Program-made: the position numbers and the translations under genes
NCBI GenBank assembly: GCA_002452335.1
Contig: DKFJ01000007.1
Location: forward strand, 66,571-130,570
DNA length: 64,000 nt
Reading direction: 5' to 3'
Origin: Deferribacteraceae bacterium UBA6799
GTDB lineage: Bacteria; Chrysiogenota; Deferribacteres; Deferribacterales; Geovibrionaceae
Notes under the pieces: model-generated
Seen by the model: only the letters and a program-made list of their open reading frames with translations
The model's database searches: none
What the model was told of the DNA's origin: nothing
Shown here: positions 56,048 to 63,777 of the stretch, piece after piece
Layout of the letters: each line of letters begins with the position of its first letter
How positions within the stretch are numbered: position 1 is the stretch's first letter

Positions 56048-56938
56048 ATGAACCGTAAACTCAGGGAATACCTCGCCGACACATCGCTGATAACCATATC
56101 GCTGATATGGGGAAGCACTTTTATAATAGTAAAAAAGACAGTTGAGCTCTTTGAGCCTATCACCTTTGTCGGACTGAGATTCACTCTGGCATTCTTTATA
56201 ATGCTTCTTTTCTGCTGGCCCAGAAGAAAAAACTTTAACTATGATCTGCTGAAAGACGGTCTGATAATAGGTGTGTCACTCTTTATCGTATTCACCTTTC
56301 AGACGCTTGCGCTGAAATACAGCCCCGCATCCGAAGTGGGCTTTCTGACAGGATTATACGTTCTTTTTGTCCCTGTTCTGTCCGCTGTCTTTCTGAAAAA
56401 ATATCCCCATATCTTTTCATGGATAGGCGTCATATTCTCTGCCGCCGGAATGATGATGATAACCATGACAGACAGCCTCAGCCTTTCTGTGGGACAGTCT
56501 TTCGCTATTCTGAACGCTTTTTTTATAGGCATACAGATCATTCTGACAGACAAGTATTCCAGAAAACACGACGTGGTTCTGCTGACCGCCATAGAGATCG
56601 GCGCAGTGGCCGCGCTCTCCATGATATACTCTGTTCTTTTTGAAAACCCTGACTATTCGCAGCTCAGACACAGCTATGTTTTTTATTCTCTGATATTCAA
56701 CGCAGTAATAGCCACTGTATTCTGTTTTTTCATTCAGATGGCCATGCAGAAGCACACCACACCTACAAAAGCGGCAATTATGTTTACCATTGAGCCGATA
56801 TCCTCAGCTTTTTTCAGCTTTTTTATCGGAGCAGAGATAATGATGTTCAGACAATACGCCGGTGCCGTAATGATAATCTCCGCTATAGTCATAGCTGAGA
56901 CCGGAACCTATCTTCGCCTGTCAAAAAGTAAAGGATGA
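56048..56938 (+). CDS. EamA/DMT-family transporter
   Basis: Ten transmembrane segments with tandem EamA repeats. Confidence 0.75.
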   Translation: MNRKLREYLADTSLITISLIWGSTFIIVKKTVELFEPITFVGLRFTLAFFIMLLFCWPRRKNFNYDLLKDGLIIGVSLFIVFTFQTLALKYSPASEVGFLTGLYVLFVPVLSAVFLKKYPHIFSWIGVIFSAAGMMMITMTDSLSLSVGQSFAILNAFFIGIQIILTDKYSRKHDVVLLTAIEIGAVAALSMIYSVLFENPDYSQLRHSYVFYSLIFNAVIATVFCFFIQMAMQKHTTPTKAAIMFTIEPISSAFFSFFIGAEIMMFRQYAGAVMIISAIVIAETGTYLRLSKSKG

Positions 56939-56973: not shown

Positions 56974-58584
56974 ATGAGATTCCAAAGATTTAATAATATT
57001 ATAGACAAAACTAACAACTATATTTTCAGAAAAGCGTTCATCGTTTTTGCTGTTACCGGTCTGATCACAACCCCTGTCATCTCATATCTGTTTCTGCACG
57101 AGCCGAAAAGCATGCTGGAGTCATATTATAAAGCAGAGTCCTCCGCTGTCAGATACAGCGCAGAGGTCATATCCGACAGGGTTTCAAAAGTAACTGAAGA
57201 CACAAAGTTTCTGGCGGGAATGCTGGAGCTTGGCGATTATATAAAAAAAGGCGACAGAGATTCTCTGGATAATTTCTCAAATAATCTTATAAATTTCGCT
57301 TCGCTGTCGAAGAACTACGACCAGCTGAGATATCTGGACTCAGCCGGACAGGAACTGGTCAGGGTAAACTACAAATCCGGATTGCCGTTTCTCGTATCCG
57401 GAAAAGAGCTTCAGAATAAATCAAAGAGATATTACTTCACCGGTGCCATGAGCATGAACAGAAACGATGTTTATATCTCCCCCATTGACCTGAATATTGA
57501 GAACGGGGTTCTGGAAATGCCGTTTAAGCCTATGATGCGGTTTGCGGCGCAGGTGCGTGACCCCGCCAGAGATATAAAGGGCGTTTTCGTGATAAACTAC
57601 TCGGTCAACGAAATGTTCTCCAAACTGAAACAGCTTTCCACCGGATCTCTGGGTAATATCATGCTTCTGAACAACGCCGGCTACTGGCTGCTGAGCAATG
57701 TGGAGGACGACCAGTGGGGCTTCATGCTCTCAGAGAGAGACTCCAGACTCTTTTCCAACGACTATCTGTCCGAATGGGAAAAGATGAAGGAGAGCGACAG
57801 CGGACAGTTTCTGACTGACAAAGGTCTCTTCACCTATCAGAAGCTGTATCTTCTGAAAAACGGTGCCGTGTCGACATCCATGACCAACGACAACAGAATG
57901 ATATACCACTACAGCCTGATAGTGGTTAAGCATATTCCGACAGCCGTGATGAAAAAGATCCAGAACGCAAAAATAATCAGCACACTGGAGATAATCAGCG
58001 TAATCTTCATTCTCTCCTGCATTCCTGCATGGCTGGTAGCCAGACAGTACACCAGAAAAAAGCTGAACAGCGAGATCATGGATATCAGCTCTAAATACGA
58101 CGCGCTGACCAAACTGCCCAACAGCGCCTCTTTTCAGTCGGCCCTATCATCCGCCATCAGCACCGCTGAAAAATACCATCAGACACTGGCCGTTATGATA
58201 GTCGGTCTGGATGGCTACGCCCACATCATAGAAGCGTTCGGAAAGAAAGCAGGCGACAACCTGGCGATATCCATAGCTGACCGGATAGTGGAAAAACTGA
58301 ACACAAGAGCCTATATAGCCCGAATAAAAGACGATACATTCGCCGTGATCCTCTACGATATAAAATCATCCGGAAGCGTGGAGCACGCCGCCGCCAGCAT
58401 CATAAGCGCAGCTGAAAACACTCACGCCGTATACGGCAGAGAATCCATAACAGCCCTCAGCATAGGCATCAGCATTTATCCCGAAAGCGGATACGAAAGC
58501 ACAGAGCTGGTGACAAAAGCCGAAAAAGCGCTTCTCGAGGCAAAACAGTCTGAGAGCAACTCCTACCGCATATTCCAGCCCTGA
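56974..58584 (+). CDS. membrane sensor protein with degenerate GGDEF domain
   Basis: Two transmembrane segments, a periplasmic Cache-like domain and a C-terminal GGDEF fold in which the active-site motif reads KDDTF (IARIKDDTFAVIL). The RxxD I-site is also absent. Confidence 0.75.
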   Translation: MRFQRFNNIIDKTNNYIFRKAFIVFAVTGLITTPVISYLFLHEPKSMLESYYKAESSAVRYSAEVISDRVSKVTEDTKFLAGMLELGDYIKKGDRDSLDNFSNNLINFASLSKNYDQLRYLDSAGQELVRVNYKSGLPFLVSGKELQNKSKRYYFTGAMSMNRNDVYISPIDLNIENGVLEMPFKPMMRFAAQVRDPARDIKGVFVINYSVNEMFSKLKQLSTGSLGNIMLLNNAGYWLLSNVEDDQWGFMLSERDSRLFSNDYLSEWEKMKESDSGQFLTDKGLFTYQKLYLLKNGAVSTSMTNDNRMIYHYSLIVVKHIPTAVMKKIQNAKIISTLEIISVIFILSCIPAWLVARQYTRKKLNSEIMDISSKYDALTKLPNSASFQSALSSAISTAEKYHQTLAVMIVGLDGYAHIIEAFGKKAGDNLAISIADRIVEKLNTRAYIARIKDDTFAVILYDIKSSGSVEHAAASIISAAENTHAVYGRESITALSIGISIYPESGYESTELVTKAEKALLEAKQSESNSYRIFQP

Positions 58585-59004
58585 TCACCACATCTGAAAA
58601 ACAATAAAAGAGACCACAAAAAATCAGTTTTTGAACTTTTTCTCATTTTTTTACATTTCACAGCAACCACAATTTAATATTAATGCCATTTTTCTATATT
58701 TTTTACCATCCAAACGCCCAGATCAGGCACATATAACCCTGTTTTTCCTGCATATTATCATGTTATCTGAAATTATATTGTATATCTATATATTATTTAC
58801 ATATAATATTTAAATGCTTTTTTATTAGTTATTTATACTTACACTATCTATTCATAACACAATCAGAACCCTGTATTGCGCATAGCGCACGGGGATTTTT
58901 TACCGCTTTTTTTATAGTTTTTCAAAATTATTTTGTTTTTATGTAATTTTTTTATTGACTTGAGCTAAACTTGGTAATAAATAGCTATGACTAAACAGTC
59001 AGCA

Positions 59005-59020
59005 GTGACCACAAGGTCAC
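59005..59020. promoter_or_regulatory. perfect 6-4-6 palindrome, candidate TetR operator, next to a sigma70-like promoter
   Basis: GTGACC-ACAA-GGTCAC lies 20 bp upstream of the TetR start. Promoter ttgact-N17-taataa is at 58957-58985. Confidence 0.45.
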
Positions 59021-59039
59021 CAACAGCGGGAGACTAAAA

Positions 59040-59699
59040 ATGGGTGTCGCCTCTATGACAGCTCACAAAAAGAGCAGGACAGAGCTACGGTCGGAAGCAA
59101 CCAGACAGTCGCTGATGACGGCTGCCAAAGAGGTATTCGCTGAAAGAGGTCTGGATATCACCACTATAGATGACATCACAGCCAGAGCGAACGTTGGCAA
59201 AGGGACATTCTATCTGCATTTCGCTAATAAAAGCGAACTGATACATCTTCTGATAACCGGCTCCATGTCGGAGCTGTGCGCGGCTCTGGACAAGGCATGC
59301 AAGAACCAGAATGATCTGGACTCACTGCTGGACAGTCTCATCAGGGCGCATCTGAAATTTTTTTCCGAACGCAGGAGCGACTTCATCCTGTTTTTTCAGG
59401 GCAGGTCTGATCTGACCATCAAGCACAGCTACGAAGGGATAGATGAACCTATCCTGAGCTATCTGGAACATGTGGCGGAGCTGATAGACAATGTTGTGAA
59501 ATATCATCTGCCCCAGAGCTCGCTCACCAGAATAGCGTGCGCAGTTGCCGGATTTTTGTCCGGATATTTTTCTTTTGCCGTCATATCCAACGATGAGGCA
59601 AATCTGGAAGAGATGCTGAACCCTGTGAGAAAGGCGCTTGTTGCGTCATTATCACGATTTATCAAGGAAGCCGTGCCTGCTGACGCAGGCAGCATATAG
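59040..59699 (+). CDS. TetR-family transcriptional regulator
   Basis: Helix-turn-helix TIDDITARANVGKGTFYLHFANKSELI. RBS gggaga lies upstream. Confidence 0.8.
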   Translation: MGVASMTAHKKSRTELRSEATRQSLMTAAKEVFAERGLDITTIDDITARANVGKGTFYLHFANKSELIHLLITGSMSELCAALDKACKNQNDLDSLLDSLIRAHLKFFSERRSDFILFFQGRSDLTIKHSYEGIDEPILSYLEHVAELIDNVVKYHLPQSSLTRIACAVAGFLSGYFSFAVISNDEANLEEMLNPVRKALVASLSRFIKEAVPADAGSI

Positions 59700-59728
59700 A
59701 GCCGACATATACAACACGAGGTGCAAAG

Positions 59729-60148
59729 ATGACAAACGCATCAGCAGTATCAACACCGTCCAAATGGACACAATTAGTCGAAGAGGCTAAAGAACGCAAA
59801 GTCTGGGGTATTGCGTCCAGCTTTGATATATACAACTGCAATCCGGAAACCATACGAAGCGCTGATGCCATCCGTCAGTTCGTCATCGAGCTCTGTGATC
59901 TCATCGAGATGAAGAGATTCGGAGAAACAGTCGTGGTGCACTTCGGCGAGGATGAAAAAGTAGCCGGCTACTCCATGACTCAGCTCATAGAAACATCTCT
60001 GATATCAGCACACTTCGCTAACCTGACAAACGCCACATATCTGGACGTTTTCAGCTGCAAACCTTATGATCCCGCTGTGGTAGAGGAATTCGCCGTCAGA
60101 TTTTTCGGCGGTACCCACTGCAATACAAACGTTAACCTCAGGCACTGA
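59729..60148 (+). CDS. S-adenosylmethionine decarboxylase-like pyruvoyl proenzyme (AdoMetDC/SpeH family)
   Basis: Collinear with class-1b SpeH (FYECD..E / [29 protein letters not shown] / [26 protein letters not shown]...DP / [11 protein letters not shown]). The processing site reads ETS-L rather than SESH. Confidence 0.6.
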   Translation: [139 protein letters not shown]

Positions 60149-60152
60149 GAAA

Positions 60153-61118
60153 GTGAACAGAATATACGCCGTAACCGAATATGACAAATGTATGGCTCTG
60201 TGGAAAGAGCTCATCCCGGTGGAGGTCGTCACCGACATATGGGAAGTGCGTGACTGCTTCCACAGAACATTCAACAGAGAGCTGTTCTTTGTGGTCTCTG
60301 AAAAAGACGGCGTTATCAATGGTTTTCTGCCGCTCTGCTACATAAGCGAAAGCTCGTCCTTCGGATATTTTCCAGGGGAATCGTGGCACGGCAAGACATG
60401 GCTGGAACAGAACCGGCTGATAGCAGACAGCGAAGAAACGCTGAACGCTATGCTCAGCTATGTCATTTCAGACGGCAGAGGCACTTTTCATCTGCGCTAT
60501 CTCAACGCCATCAGCACCCTGACAATGGAGGAGGACGAGACAGGGTATCTGTTCACTCCTCCGGCATACGGCTTCTGCATGGACGAATACTACAAAACGT
60601 TCAGCGGAAAAACAGCCAAAAAGATAAAGAAGGAGGTCGCCTCCTTCGATGAAAAAAACATAGAGACTGTTATCGACAGGTATGAGGATTTCGAAGTGCT
60701 GGCGGATATGAACGTCTCACGCTTCGGTCACGACTCATACTTCTCCGATGAGCGATTCAGAGGCGGTTTCCGCAATATGATGCTGTGGCTGAAGGAGAAC
60801 GGCATGCTCCGCATGACATCCGTGATGATAGACGGACGACACGCCGCCATAGACATGGGAAGCATCTTCAGAAACACATACACCCTGCTGGCAGGAGGCA
60901 CATCCGCCGACTATCCGGGCGTTGCGAAATATATCAACACTCTGCATATGAGATATTCCTGCGAACAGCGTTTTTCACAGGCAGACTTTCTCTGTGGTAA
61001 CTTTTCGTGGAAAAGCATGTTTCATCTTGAACCCAGACCTCTTTTCAAGGTATCTAATACTGACGAATCCGTTTTTGAGAAAATAGCCGGAACGGTCAGC
61101 GGAGTATGTTTTGCCTGA
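60153..61118 (+). CDS. FemAB/CelD-like (Acetyltransf_6, GNAT-fold) acyl/aminoacyl transferase
   Basis: 321 aa with a GTG start. A GNAT-like core lies in the C-terminal half. The gene overlaps the ATP-grasp start. Confidence 0.45.
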   Translation: MNRIYAVTEYDKCMALWKELIPVEVVTDIWEVRDCFHRTFNRELFFVVSEKDGVINGFLPLCYISESSSFGYFPGESWHGKTWLEQNRLIADSEETLNAMLSYVISDGRGTFHLRYLNAISTLTMEEDETGYLFTPPAYGFCMDEYYKTFSGKTAKKIKKEVASFDEKNIETVIDRYEDFEVLADMNVSRFGHDSYFSDERFRGGFRNMMLWLKENGMLRMTSVMIDGRHAAIDMGSIFRNTYTLLAGGTSADYPGVAKYINTLHMRYSCEQRFSQADFLCGNFSWKSMFHLEPRPLFKVSNTDESVFEKIAGTVSGVCFA

Positions 61119-62361
61119 TAAAAGAGTGGTCGTTGTTGGTTCCACGGCCGATTACAATGAGATAATCCATAAACTGCTCAGAGACAGCGTACTGTTTCTG
61201 ACAGACGTACATGAAAGCCTAAGCTGGGGCGGCTACAAGCCGCCGCTGAAAGACGAGTGCCTTACAGATCTGACAGACACTGCTCTGTCTCTGAGAAATC
61301 TGAAAGAACATCTGAAACTGCACAAGATAAAAATTTCAGGCGTGGCATGTTTCGACTGCGAATCACTGCCGCTGGCGTCCGCAGTGGCGAAAACACTCAG
61401 TCTGCCGTTTCCTTCCGCAGACAGCATAGATCTCTGCCGGTCAAAATCCAGATCACATAAGGCATGGAAGGACAGCGGAGTTCTCTGTCCGAAAACCAGA
61501 ACCGTATCATCTCTAAACGACATATCCGGAGCAGTGGAGGCGACAGGCTTTCCTGCTGTCTTGAAACCTGCCACAGGAAGCGGAAGCGAGCTGGTCTTTC
61601 TGGTGAAAAACCAGGAAGAGGCGCATGAAAAATTCCGTTTTATCGAGGAAAAACTGGCAATGCACCATAACACCAGAATGTACGGCACAACCGACTGCAC
61701 TCTGGAAGAATACATAGACGGTACAGAATACAGCTGTGACTGGATAATGAAAAACGGACAGGCGGAGATCATCCGCTTTTCCAGAAAGATACACGACCAC
61801 TCCCTCTCTTTCGGCACTACATCCGCTTATGTGGTTCCGGGAGAAAGAGACACGGACCTGAGCACCGAAGACGTGAAAAAAACGCTGGTAAAAGGCGCTC
61901 AGGCGCTCGGTTTCTCAGACATGATAGCCATGACCGATATGATGGAGAAAGACGGCAGAATATATCTGCTGGAGATGACACCCAGAATAGGCGGAGACTG
62001 TCTGCCGTGGCTGATAGAGGAATCATCCGGTCTGAATATGTTCCGGCTGGCGATAGACCACGCGGCAGGAAAAAAACTTCGTATTCCGGCGGCAGACCAA
62101 TGGGCTGTGAAATGCGCAGTCAGGATAATCGCCGACAGTGAAGGAATATTCGACCATGTGGAAATGGACGATGACAGCAGGATCACAAGATCACTTATAG
62201 ATAAAAAAACAGGGCATGAGATAATCCTCCCTCCGGAAAACTACGACTCCAGAATACTGGGATTCGTGATATTCACCCCAGACACATCAGAAAAACTGAA
62301 AGATCAGGCGGAGAGCATCAGACGCTCCGTCAGGATTATATACAAGAATGATATACGCTAA
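61111..62361 (+). CDS. ATP-grasp carboxylate-amine ligase
   Basis: GFPAVLKPATGSGSELVFLV...EYIDGTEYSCDWI...LEMTPRIGGD are ATP-grasp motifs. Confidence 0.7.
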   Translation: MPDKRVVVVGSTADYNEIIHKLLRDSVLFLTDVHESLSWGGYKPPLKDECLTDLTDTALSLRNLKEHLKLHKIKISGVACFDCESLPLASAVAKTLSLPFPSADSIDLCRSKSRSHKAWKDSGVLCPKTRTVSSLNDISGAVEATGFPAVLKPATGSGSELVFLVKNQEEAHEKFRFIEEKLAMHHNTRMYGTTDCTLEEYIDGTEYSCDWIMKNGQAEIIRFSRKIHDHSLSFGTTSAYVVPGERDTDLSTEDVKKTLVKGAQALGFSDMIAMTDMMEKDGRIYLLEMTPRIGGDCLPWLIEESSGLNMFRLAIDHAAGKKLRIPAADQWAVKCAVRIIADSEGIFDHVEMDDDSRITRSLIDKKTGHEIILPPENYDSRILGFVIFTPDTSEKLKDQAESIRRSVRIIYKNDIR

Positions 62362-63670
62362 CTATCTGGAATCACTGACAAACATTCTCGGCAAAACCAC
62401 TCCGCCACTTCCGGAGAAACATATAGCGGATGCGGTGGATTATATTCACTCCATATCTGACAAACTTCAGCAGGCGAAGGAGCGTTTCGGATCGCCTCTT
62501 TATGTGATAGACGAACAGGGGCTTCTGACTCACGCAGAGCTTTTTATGTCCGCATTTAAAGAATGTTTCGGGAAGTTTCAGCCTTTCTTTGCCATGAAGA
62601 GCAACAATCACCCCTATATTATTAAAAAACTGTCCGAAAACGGATACGGGATAGATGTGTCCAGCGGAGCGGAGCTTTTGACAGCGCTGAACGCCGGAGC
62701 AGACAAGCTGGTATTCAGCGGTCCGGCAAAAACATCGAAAGAGCTGTCGCTCGCGGTTGAGAACTCTGACAAAGTGACTGTGCTGATTGACAGCCTGAAC
62801 GAGCTGGAAAAGCTGAGCGCTGAGGCGGACAGACAGAACAGAAAGATCAGAGCCGGAGTGCGGATCACAACCCAGAATAACCCCCTCTGGCGCAAATTCG
62901 GCATAGCGCCTGATGCTCTGCCCTCTTTCATGAACAAAGCCGCAGAGAAACGGAATATAGACCTCTGCGGACTACAGTTTCACTCCAGCTGGAACCTGAC
63001 GCCTGACAATCACATCAGACTGATAGAGACCATCGGTCACGCCATATCGACCCTGAGCGCAGAACAGCGGGAGCGCATAAAGTTTCTGGACATGGGAGGC
63101 GGTTACTGGGTGGAAGACGGCGAATGGATGCTGGCGGACACAGCTCAGGAGATCAAGGTTGCCAAACATCTGACGGATATCGACACCGACCCGCTGGATC
63201 ACAGATATCTGCCCGCCACAGATATCAGAACATATGCAAAAGCACTCTCTGATGCTTTTAACAGGCACATACGCCCGCTGACCGACTGCGATGTTTACGC
63301 CGAGCCGGGGCGTTTTGTGGCTCACCACAGCATGCACCTTCTGCTCAGCGTTGAGGATATCAAAGAGCCGGACATAGCAGTCACAGACGGCGCTACAAAC
63401 ATGCTGGGCTGGGAAAGATACGAAATGGACTATTTTCCTGTGGTGAATATCACTGCTCCGTCAAAGACCGAGAGACCCATGATGGTGCTCGGCTCACTCT
63501 GCACCCCTCACGATGTCTGGGGAGCGGCTTATCACGGGCAAAGCATGAGCATCGGCGACATACTGATAATCCCCTATCAGGGGGCATACACCTACAGCCT
63601 CAGGCAGAATTTTATCAAAGATATTCCGGAAAGTATTGTTTTCAGAGGATCTGAACTCTTCAGGGCATAA
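62348..63670 (+). CDS. fold-III PLP-dependent decarboxylase (Orn/DAP/Arg decarboxylase family)
   Basis: PLYVIDEQ...FFAMKSNNHP (PLP-binding Lys), a TIM barrel and the C-terminal beta-domain GSLCTPHDVW. Confidence 0.75.
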   Translation: MIYANYLESLTNILGKTTPPLPEKHIADAVDYIHSISDKLQQAKERFGSPLYVIDEQGLLTHAELFMSAFKECFGKFQPFFAMKSNNHPYIIKKLSENGYGIDVSSGAELLTALNAGADKLVFSGPAKTSKELSLAVENSDKVTVLIDSLNELEKLSAEADRQNRKIRAGVRITTQNNPLWRKFGIAPDALPSFMNKAAEKRNIDLCGLQFHSSWNLTPDNHIRLIETIGHAISTLSAEQRERIKFLDMGGGYWVEDGEWMLADTAQEIKVAKHLTDIDTDPLDHRYLPATDIRTYAKALSDAFNRHIRPLTDCDVYAEPGRFVAHHSMHLLLSVEDIKEPDIAVTDGATNMLGWERYEMDYFPVVNITAPSKTERPMMVLGSLCTPHDVWGAAYHGQSMSIGDILIIPYQGAYTYSLRQNFIKDIPESIVFRGSELFRA

Positions 63671-63705
63671 AAAAACCGCACCCATAGAATGAGTGCGGTA
63701 AAAAA

Positions 63706-63777
63706 TAGGCACGGACGGTTTCGAACCGTCGACCCTTGCCACGTCAAGGCAATGCTCTCCCACTGAGCTACGCGCCT
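63706..63777 (-). tRNA. tRNA-Val (anticodon GAC)
   Basis: The minus-strand cloverleaf is AGGCGCG-TA-GCTC-AGTGGGA-GAGC-A-TTGCC-TTGACGT-GGCAA-GGGTC-GACGG-TTCGAAA-CCGTC-CGTGCCT-A. A terminator hairpin accgcactc...gtgcggt-tttttt lies 3' of it on the minus strand. Confidence 0.8.

Follow-up and report, generated by a model that had tools for sequence, protein, structure and literature searches.

What might a bacterium make with an operon that sets a pyruvoyl-type decarboxylase, a transferase, a ligase and a pyridoxal 5'-phosphate (PLP)-dependent decarboxylase side by side, behind the gene for a TetR-family repressor? The question is raised by a locus in a 64,000-nt stretch (the window) of a Deferribacterales metagenome-assembled genome (MAG), contig DKFJ01000007.1. 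A first-pass annotation, made from the letters alone, had described four closely packed genes (59729-63670) behind a TetR gene and had read them as a possible system for making and conjugating an amine. A check of open reading frames returns all five plus-strand frames where that annotation had placed them, each with a Pfam domain (TetR_N, 3.8e-15; AdoMet_dc, 4.8e-21; Acetyltransf_6, 1.9e-14; ATP-grasp_4, 1.3e-16; Orn_Arg_deC_N, 7.6e-33); coordinates are collected in Table 1. We lean, with moderate confidence, towards an autoregulated TetR operon whose four-enzyme cassette would convert ornithine to putrescine and then to an amide-linked, decarboxylated amino-acid conjugate. Within this pathway the predicted putrescine step, assigned to a SpeDC-type enzyme, is strongly supported by sequence kinship.

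Gene 1 and the conserved cassette

Gene 1 most likely encodes SpeDC, a pyruvoyl enzyme that would convert L-ornithine to putrescine after predicted self-cleavage at T89|S90. The fold is that of class 1b S-adenosylmethionine decarboxylase (AdoMetDC): PF02675 is matched at 75.5 bits against a cutoff of 25, and an AlphaFold (AF2) model with a predicted local distance difference test score (pLDDT) of 82 has as its top Foldseek matches the AdoMetDC structures of T. maritima and Aquifex (1VR7, 1TLU, 2III; template modelling score 0.69-0.85, 15-17% identity). Searches of the PDB with the single sequence and with a profile gave no match; the kinship is visible only by fold search and Pfam hidden Markov model because the sequence is too diverged. 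In a profile alignment S90, H95 and C110 fall on S63 (the pyruvoyl precursor), H68 and C83 of the T. maritima enzyme, whose residue numbering was checked against 1TLU and the processed enzyme 3IWB, and all three residues are invariant in 31 family sequences. The motif that contains them, Q85-LIE-T89-S90-LISA-H95-F96 ... Y104-LDVFS-C110, is likewise family-invariant.

The published SpeDC group is diagnosed by conserved Gln, Thr, Phe and Tyr residues around the Ser/His/Cys set (PMC10407285, section 7), and in gene 1 these would be Q85, T89, F96 and Y104, all invariant in the family alignment. SpeD1-SpeD2 fusions carry a pyruvoyl L-ornithine decarboxylase (ODC) as their C-terminal domain, and the substitution S229A abolishes the ODC activity; the two validated ODC domains (Fig. 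S5) read QLIETSL(I/V)SGHFAN ... Y(L/I)D(V/I)FS, with the pyruvoyl mark at that Ser (PMC10407285). Gene 1 is at least 52% identical to the validated domain of Omnitrophica OLB16 and at least 59% identical to that of D. phosphitoxidans, values that are lower bounds because of optical character recognition errors in the printed Fig. S5 sequences; the four diagnostic residues are found in both SpeD2 domains. The protein is also 65% identical to the C-terminal domain of a SpeD-SpeDC-type fusion, as against 28% to T. maritima SpeH. The SpeH model TIGR03330 gives 21.7 bits, well under its cutoff of 75.65, and where a true AdoMetDC has ES|H...HTWPE, gene 1 has ETS|L...HFANL, without the Pro. The 'ETS-L' that the first-pass annotation had noticed in place of SESH is real (T89-S90-L91). 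Its suggestion of a neofunctionalised AdoMetDC family member was right in that the protein carries the SpeDC signature, but the family had already been described (PMC10407285). Since gene 1 belongs to the SpeDC family, the amine made is most likely putrescine.

Homologs of the small protein number in the thousands; the best 120 are 69-96% identical. Its conservation (65-87% identity) is well above that of its partners (33-63%). This higher conservation had suggested a carrier or scaffold; the idea was dropped once the protein was identified as SpeDC, because SpeDC relatives in quite different settings, fused to SpeD, SpeE, SET or GNAT, reach 51-65% identity too and gene 1 has kept its catalytic residues. 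Fusions to canonical SpeD, to spermidine synthase, to SET domains and to a GNAT turned up in an exhaustive search among relatives at 51-62% identity. SpeDC-like domains fused to SET, Acetyltransf_1 GNAT and spermidine synthase (P0251, P0253, P0254, P0304, P0264) receive no mention in the SpeDC paper (PMC10407285); of these, the fusions with SET and GNAT suggest that the amine product may be methylated or acetylated directly.

Gene 1 differs from the published SpeDC genes in its company. Those are found next to speD/speE, casdh/casdc or hss, or on their own, and they supply the synthesis of spermidine or homospermidine (Li, Liang, Phillips & Michael, JBC 2023; PMC10407285). The window protein shares with that family its fold, the Ser/His/Cys residues for processing and catalysis, the Gln/Thr/Phe/Tyr set and the QLIETSL(I/V)S.HFAN motif, and its hosts overlap with the published ones in Omnitrophota, Lentisphaerota, Sumerlaeota, delta-proteobacteria and Nitrospirota. 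Its partners, in contrast, are a Fem-like GNAT, an ATP-grasp protein and a fold-III PLP decarboxylase. SpeDC, described in 2023 only as a supplier of putrescine for spermidine and homospermidine, here heads a different conserved cassette.

How well conserved this cassette is was surveyed in the 80 best loci, independently fetched and searched with all five window proteins. The AdoMet_dc-like, GNAT, ATP-grasp and PLP decarboxylase genes are collinear in that order in 78 of the 80, and wherever one is missing among these 78 the end of the contig is reached first. One of the two exceptions (L036) has the SpeDC-like gene alone, without partners, among neighbours that give no functional clue (glutamate dehydrogenase, a B12-binding protein and a chaperonin); the other (L049) is a degraded second copy, the same genome having a complete one as well. 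That genome, CP070689.1, has two inverted TetR-plus-cassette copies about 23 kb apart (L035 and L049), the second of which has a truncated ATP-grasp gene and no PLP decarboxylase and is probably a decaying duplicate.

The same four genes were found in the same order in three further unrelated genomic contexts, and a scan of one genome per species finds a SpeDC-type relative encoded in at least 592 species genomes. The hosts belong to at least 11 phyla (Deferribacterota, Zixibacteria, Planctomycetota/Phycisphaerae/Brocadiaceae, Thermodesulfobacteriota, Ignavibacteria(les), Omnitrophota, Hydrogenedentota, Armatimonadota, Lentisphaerota, Nitrospirota and Sumerlaeota); they are mostly anaerobes, and many are uncultured, from sediment and digesters. 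An ATP-grasp ortholog (P0447) comes from a MAG labelled Candidatus Hodarchaeota, an Asgard archaeon, and is either part of an archaeal cassette or a binning error. Fusions between the GNAT, ATP-grasp and decarboxylase proteins were absent from the best 120 homologs of the GNAT and of the ATP-grasp protein.

This four-gene arrangement is far beyond chance. Failure to co-occur in other genomes had been named in the first-pass annotation as a ground for dismissing the system; the genes do co-occur, in a fixed order and in at least 11 phyla. It is very improbable that the locus is a chance adjacency of housekeeping genes, with SpeH for spermidine, LysA for lysine and an unrelated GNAT and ATP-grasp protein. 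Automatic annotation does give such names, public records calling the members, generically or misleadingly, S-adenosylmethionine decarboxylase, GNAT, biotin carboxylase and diaminopimelate (DAP) decarboxylase, and lysA is the best NCBIfam match of the last gene; yet every equivalog cutoff is missed by a wide margin, the reading frames overlap, the fixed order across phyla comes with shared dedicated regulators, and gene 1 has the SpeDC signature instead of the HTWPE of AdoMetDC.

The three partner enzymes and the proposed conjugate

The enzymes that follow SpeDC suggest what may become of the putrescine. The nearest relatives of the ATP-grasp protein, searched both as a single sequence and as a profile of its orthologs, are L-amino-acid ligases, which agrees with its earlier description as an amide-bond ligase. 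A profile search of the PDB puts 4DIM and the L-amino-acid ligase BL00235 (1e-30) first, followed by BacD. ATP-grasp_4 is matched at 61 bits, and the L-amino-acid-ligase domain LAL_C2 (PF18603), found on many of the orthologs, is matched only weakly by the window protein (21.5 against a cutoff of 29.4); the protein falls below cutoff for every NCBIfam equivalog of this ligase class.

The last enzyme has as its closest solved relatives, by ortholog profile, FslC (6e-39), SbnH (6KNH; 2e-36), Aquifex LysA (2e-36) and BtrK (9e-36). Three of these four decarboxylate an amino acid that has already been conjugated, FslC being an N-citrylornithine decarboxylase. The active-site loop, GSLCTPHD, in which LCTPHD is invariant, resembles GQLCTPKD of SbnH and GPLCTPED of BtrK and differs from GPICETGD of LysA. 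A LysA assignment is further disfavoured by TIGR01048 (152.6 against a cutoff of 297.9) and by the loop itself, which in a LysA would be CE(S/T)GD (CETGD in the Aquifex enzyme). For NspC/CASDC the corresponding score is 32.6 against 409 (TIGR01047), and a gene for the CASDH dehydrogenase partner is absent from the cassette at every locus. The FslC model (72.9 against 500) and the SpeA models are not reached either. By sequence comparison, then, the decarboxylase appears closest to the FslC/SbnH/BtrK enzymes, which act on conjugated amino acids, and is neither LysA nor NspC. Nor does the locus map onto a carboxyspermidine or housekeeping route, the second ground for dismissal named by the first-pass annotation: the NspC, LysA and SpeH models all score below their cutoffs.

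Ligases that work together with a fold-III decarboxylase are known from FslA/FslC (rhizoferrin), SbnE/SbnH (staphyloferrin B) and BtrJ/BtrK (butirosin side chain); in these modules the ligase joins a carboxylate to an amine or a thiol, and the decarboxylase acts on the conjugated amino acid. BtrJ is also an ATP-grasp enzyme. The window decarboxylase appears nearest to the decarboxylases of these modules and has the CTPxD loop in common with SbnH and BtrK. The locus here differs in lacking genes for a synthetase of the NIS (non-ribosomal-peptide-synthetase-independent siderophore) type, an acyl carrier protein (ACP) and aminoglycoside synthesis, in having a ligase of the L-amino-acid-ligase type, and in having its own ornithine decarboxylase and Fem-like transferase.

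These precedents bring in a different explanation, that the cassette makes a secreted metallophore or antimetabolite, an exported chelator or pseudopeptide derived from putrescine or ornithine, with the ATP-grasp protein in the role of the NIS synthetase and the PLP enzyme acting like FslC or SbnH on an acylated amino acid. We regard this as unlikely. FslC and then SbnH are indeed the best profile matches of the decarboxylase, and TetR-type control is common for specialised metabolites; an MFS transporter gene lies directly downstream in seven Zixibacteria/Ignavibacteria loci and a citrate synthase gene in five Desulfocapsaceae-type loci, but both are lineage-specific and absent from most loci, the window included. 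No gene for an IucA/IucC-type synthetase or a receptor is linked to the cassette, and an invariant four-gene layout across 11 phyla, with no variation in tailoring genes, is atypical of secondary-metabolite clusters. Most of the hosts are anaerobes, for which ferric siderophores are less needed.

The closest solved folds to the tandem-GNAT protein are the aminoacyl-tRNA-dependent transferases Sbb17 (the top match), FemX/FemA and MprF, so its earlier description as a FemAB-like transferase holds at the level of fold. By sequence it matches PF13480 only, scores 17.1 against a cutoff of 260 with TIGR03019 and has no match in the PDB. The likeness to Sbb17 (of the BD-12/streptothricin type), FemX and MprF lies in the tandem GNAT fold; sequence identity to them is only 8-12%, and the window protein belongs to Acetyltransf_6, not FemAB. 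Judged by its fold, the enzyme is probably aminoacyl-tRNA-dependent, and Sbb17 provides a precedent for the tRNA-dependent aminoacylation of small-molecule amines.

The Fem-like fold could instead point to the cell envelope, with putrescine and amino acids attached to a peptidoglycan precursor or an acidic glycan. In such a scheme an aminoacyl branch would come from the Fem-like enzyme, the free D-centre of a DAP residue would be the target of the LysA-like enzyme, and the ATP-grasp protein would amidate a carboxylate with putrescine in the manner of D-aspartate ligase or capsule amidoligases. Amides of uronic acids and peptidoglycan with linked polyamines do exist, and the near folds include enzymes acting on peptidoglycan precursors (FemX/FemA) and on lipids (MprF). 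Nevertheless we consider envelope modification quite unlikely: in the 80 loci the cassette has no co-conserved mur, glycosyltransferase or envelope genes, the four proteins all look soluble, a small-molecule amine is the substrate of the top match Sbb17, and the ATP-grasp protein groups with free-amino-acid ligases and not with Ddl or Mur-type enzymes.

Also on the side of the envelope are weak matches to two models, TIGR03019 and TIGR03099, which we take to describe the uncharacterised FemAB and PLP decarboxylase set associated with exosortase-A (PEP-CTERM), together with an acyl-CoA ligase/ACP. These models are the second-best or only NCBIfam matches of the GNAT (17 against 260) and of the decarboxylase (95 against 478). 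Both systems combine a Fem-like GNAT, a LysA-like decarboxylase and a carboxylate-activating enzyme. In the window, however, activation would be by an ATP-grasp protein and not by an AMP-ligase with ACP, SpeDC is present, and no exosortase or exopolysaccharide genes lie nearby.

The pathway that we favour would begin with the self-processing pyruvoyl SpeDC converting L-ornithine to putrescine. The steps after it, suggested by family relationships and of uncertain order, would build putrescine or ornithine into an amide-linked conjugate. The ATP-grasp enzyme would join an amino-acid carboxylate to the amine as an amide; in one route Asp or Glu, via the side-chain carboxyl, or a diamino-dicarboxylate would be ligated to putrescine. 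The PLP decarboxylase would then strip the remaining alpha-carboxylate after conjugation, following the logic of rhizoferrin, staphyloferrin B and butirosin, and the Fem/Sbb17-like GNAT may cap a free primary amine with an aminoacyl group from aminoacyl-tRNA. The predicted product is a small, polyamine-like, amide-linked and twice-decarboxylated amine conjugate, such as an aminoacylated N-(aminoacyl)putrescine, for example (gamma-aminobutyryl or beta-alanyl)-putrescine. The amide bond should persist in the product because no reductase is present. An alternative order, in which ornithine is acylated at N5 and then decarboxylated by the FslC-like enzyme, is equally compatible.

Several points weigh against the putrescine-conjugate pathway. 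L-amino-acid ligases normally activate the alpha-carboxylate, and because of this no alpha-amino-acid moiety would be left for the PLP enzyme, unless the donor is Asp or Glu acting through its side chain, or a diamino-dicarboxylate. Among the relatives of the decarboxylase, Aquifex LysA scores as well as SbnH and BtrK. The residues that place gene 1 in the SpeDC group were assigned to the diagnostic positions by their order in the text of PMC10407285, and a cassette-linked SpeDC clade could have a shifted substrate, for example an N5-substituted ornithine. Finally, no transporter or reductase is universally linked to the cassette in the 80 loci. The same survey mildly favours a soluble intracellular metabolite, since no transporter or envelope genes are universally linked.

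More tentatively, and with rather less confidence than in the pathway itself, the cassette may represent a widespread and so far unrecognised route from ornithine to a new class of polyamine analogue with an amide bond, for example an aminoacylated N-(omega-aminoacyl)putrescine, made with the aid of aminoacyl-tRNA and serving as a conditionally induced polycation or signal in many anaerobic phyla. The first-pass annotation had not recognised a characterised pathway in these genes, and we found no description of the enzyme combination in the full-text literature searched, the coverage of which is incomplete. The SpeDC paper, where 'ATP-grasp' has 0 occurrences (PMC10407285), and the 2026 homospermidine paper from the same laboratory mention neither the combination nor a link between it and SpeDC. 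Already known are the SpeDC family, ligases paired with fold-III decarboxylases, and the tRNA-dependent aminoacylation of small-molecule amines; what appears new is a polyamine-type operon in which unprecedented downstream chemistry would be linked to SpeDC.

If the product is a new putrescine conjugate, bacterial polyamine chemistry would be widened and thousands of misannotated genes would gain a function. It would be a rare instance of the use of aminoacyl-tRNA in primary-like amine metabolism, and would add a fourth polyamine logic to aminopropyl transfer, the carboxyspermidine route and homospermidine synthesis, the first with tRNA-dependent chemistry. The system is small, its proteins appear soluble, and it is directly testable by expression in E. 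coli and liquid chromatography-mass spectrometry, as used for SpeDC. Because it is widespread, strictly conserved and easily tested, the cassette is of good interest.

Predicted control by TetR and by σ54 activators

When would such a product be made? The repressor has an N-terminal helix-turn-helix domain (PF00440) and a predicted palindromic operator in its own promoter that is conserved with its orthologs. The perfect palindrome GTGACC-ACAA-GGTCAC reported by the first-pass annotation is present as operator O2, the sole exact match in the window, and a second, operator-like site, O1, absent from that annotation, fits the same TGAC-N6-GTCA pattern. The two are offset by 18 bp, with equal phasing in five other loci (L020, L025, L031, L040, L062), and in a Planctomycetota locus (L054) the operator arms are identical to those of O2.

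A TetR ortholog (36-60% identity) lies upstream of the cassette in 40 loci, about half, and TGAC-N6-GTCA occurs in 27 of these 40 between -200 and +10 of the TetR starts. There are 42 sites in 8.3 kb of such sequence, or 5.1/kb, compared with 0.019/kb elsewhere in the same loci, an enrichment of about 270-fold. The sites are often in tandem with a spacing of exactly 18 bp, and the pattern is found ahead of the cassette in only 1 of 42 loci without TetR.

Both operators lie just downstream of a TTGACT hexamer; elsewhere, at several loci, the more upstream of the operators shares bases with a TTGAC -35-like hexamer. A σ70 consensus scan called no promoter at the expected place; the putative promoter of Table 1 was read by eye and is weak. 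Since the gap between the TetR gene and the next is only 29 nt, TetR is most simply seen as the first gene of an autoregulated five-gene operon. TetR would bind the two operators over the promoter and start region, and a ligand linked to the pathway would presumably release it.

In 25-28 loci without TetR a divergent gene for an NtrC-type σ54 activator lies 250-800 bp upstream. A strict TGGCAY-N5-YTGCH (-24/-12) element precedes the cassette in 8 of 25 such loci, compared with 0 of 58 others, and in these lineages the same cassette may be driven from a σ54 promoter by the divergent activator. Given these two classes of locus, the cassette behaves as a portable unit under at least two regulatory schemes. 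The earlier description of the cassette as 'TetR-gated' therefore stands as far as the conserved operator goes (27/40 loci), but TetR is not universal and about a third of the loci have a σ54 activator instead. The inducing condition might be found by way of the TetR operator, which is conserved, and of the σ54 control that replaces it elsewhere.

Boundaries and neighbours of the locus

Table 1. Features of the operon and its flanks (positions in the window)
Feature	Position	Strand	Details
AT-rich intergenic spacer	58585-58954		GC 0.26-0.35 in sliding windows; upstream of promoter region
Putative σ70 promoter	58955-58983	+	-35 TTGACT 58955-58960; 17-nt spacer; weak -10 TAAATA 58978-58983
Operator O1	58988-59001		TGACTAAACAGTCA; TGAC-TAAACA-GTCA
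Operator O2	59005-59020		perfect 16-bp palindrome; core TGAC-N6-GTCA 59006-59019
TetR-family repressor	59040-59699	+	Shine-Dalgarno GGGAG 59028-59032; alternative start 59055; PF00440
speDC, AdoMet_dc-fold gene	59729-60148	+	PF02675
Gene-1 residue codons	S90 59996-59998; H95 60011-60013; C110 60056-60058	+	by alignment
Tandem-GNAT (Acetyltransf_6, Fem-like) transferase	60153-61118	+	GTG start 4 nt past preceding stop
ATP-grasp ligase, L-amino-acid-ligase type	61111-62361	+	TTG start; 8-nt overlap with GNAT gene
Fold-III PLP-dependent decarboxylase	62348-63670	+	14-nt overlap with ATP-grasp gene
Decarboxylase active-site features	PLP-Lys K84 62597-62599; loop C385-T-P-H-D389 63500-63514	+	fold-III motifs
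GC-rich hairpin	63675-63699		11-pair stem; between operon end and convergent tRNA-Val

Gene callers also use an alternative GTG start for the ATP-grasp gene, at 61126. Downstream of the operon the hairpin is likely to mark the end of the transcription unit; it was called as a terminator on the minus strand, and its plus-strand role is our reading. It is flanked by a T-run towards the tRNA gene and an A-run towards the operon, so it may act as a terminator for both strands. The tRNA-Val(gac) gene beyond it (63706-63777, minus strand) is convergent with the operon. With a GC content of 0.495, close to the 0.474 of the window, the cassette gives no compositional sign of being an island.

The first-pass annotation had seen an AT-rich spacer of about 450 bp, which measures 455 bp (58585-59039; 29% GC, against 47% for the window), and had taken this spacer and the tRNA-Val gene as brackets of the block. 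Both are present, but neither marks a conserved boundary: the spacer is not conserved as a feature at other loci, and the adjacency of a tRNA gene is unique to this genome, being found in 0 of 56 other loci. On the same count, the tRNA-Val gene was ruled out as a part of the system or an integration site. Within the spacer, about 290 nt past the GGDEF gene, a GC-rich inverted repeat at 58860-58900 is followed by a T-run (…CCCTGTATTGCGCATAGCGCACGGGGATTTTTT…); it was not called by the consensus scan and resembles a terminator or a small structured element.

The upstream neighbours on the same strand are genes for an EamA-family transporter (56048-56938) and a dCache-GGDEF diguanylate cyclase (56974-58584), and at L001 a pstSCAB phosphate transporter and a Cache-HAMP chemoreceptor are encoded further upstream. 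None of these genes is conserved beside the cassette at other loci. A reading as anti-phage defence was dropped, as PADLOC matches none of the five proteins.

Beyond the cassette itself no other universally linked gene was found among the 80 loci; genes for MFS, fasciclin, RimK-like and citrate synthase proteins are neighbours in particular lineages only. In Zixibacteria and Ignavibacteria loci a gene for a secreted fasciclin-domain protein lies between TetR and the cassette, and an MFS gene follows the cassette (L026, L027, L040, L056, L062, L080 and L014, L038, L065); some loci of these lineages add a trio of RimK-like, RLAN and GNAT-peptidase_C39-like genes. In Desulfocapsaceae/Desulfobulbaceae-type loci (L028, L050, L051, L057, L079) the cassette is followed immediately by a gene for citrate synthase (PF00285, 5e-134), which lies about 4.1-5.5 kb beyond the start of speDC. 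This linkage is intriguing because the closest solved relatives of the decarboxylase act on citryl-amino acids; it may simply be lineage synteny.

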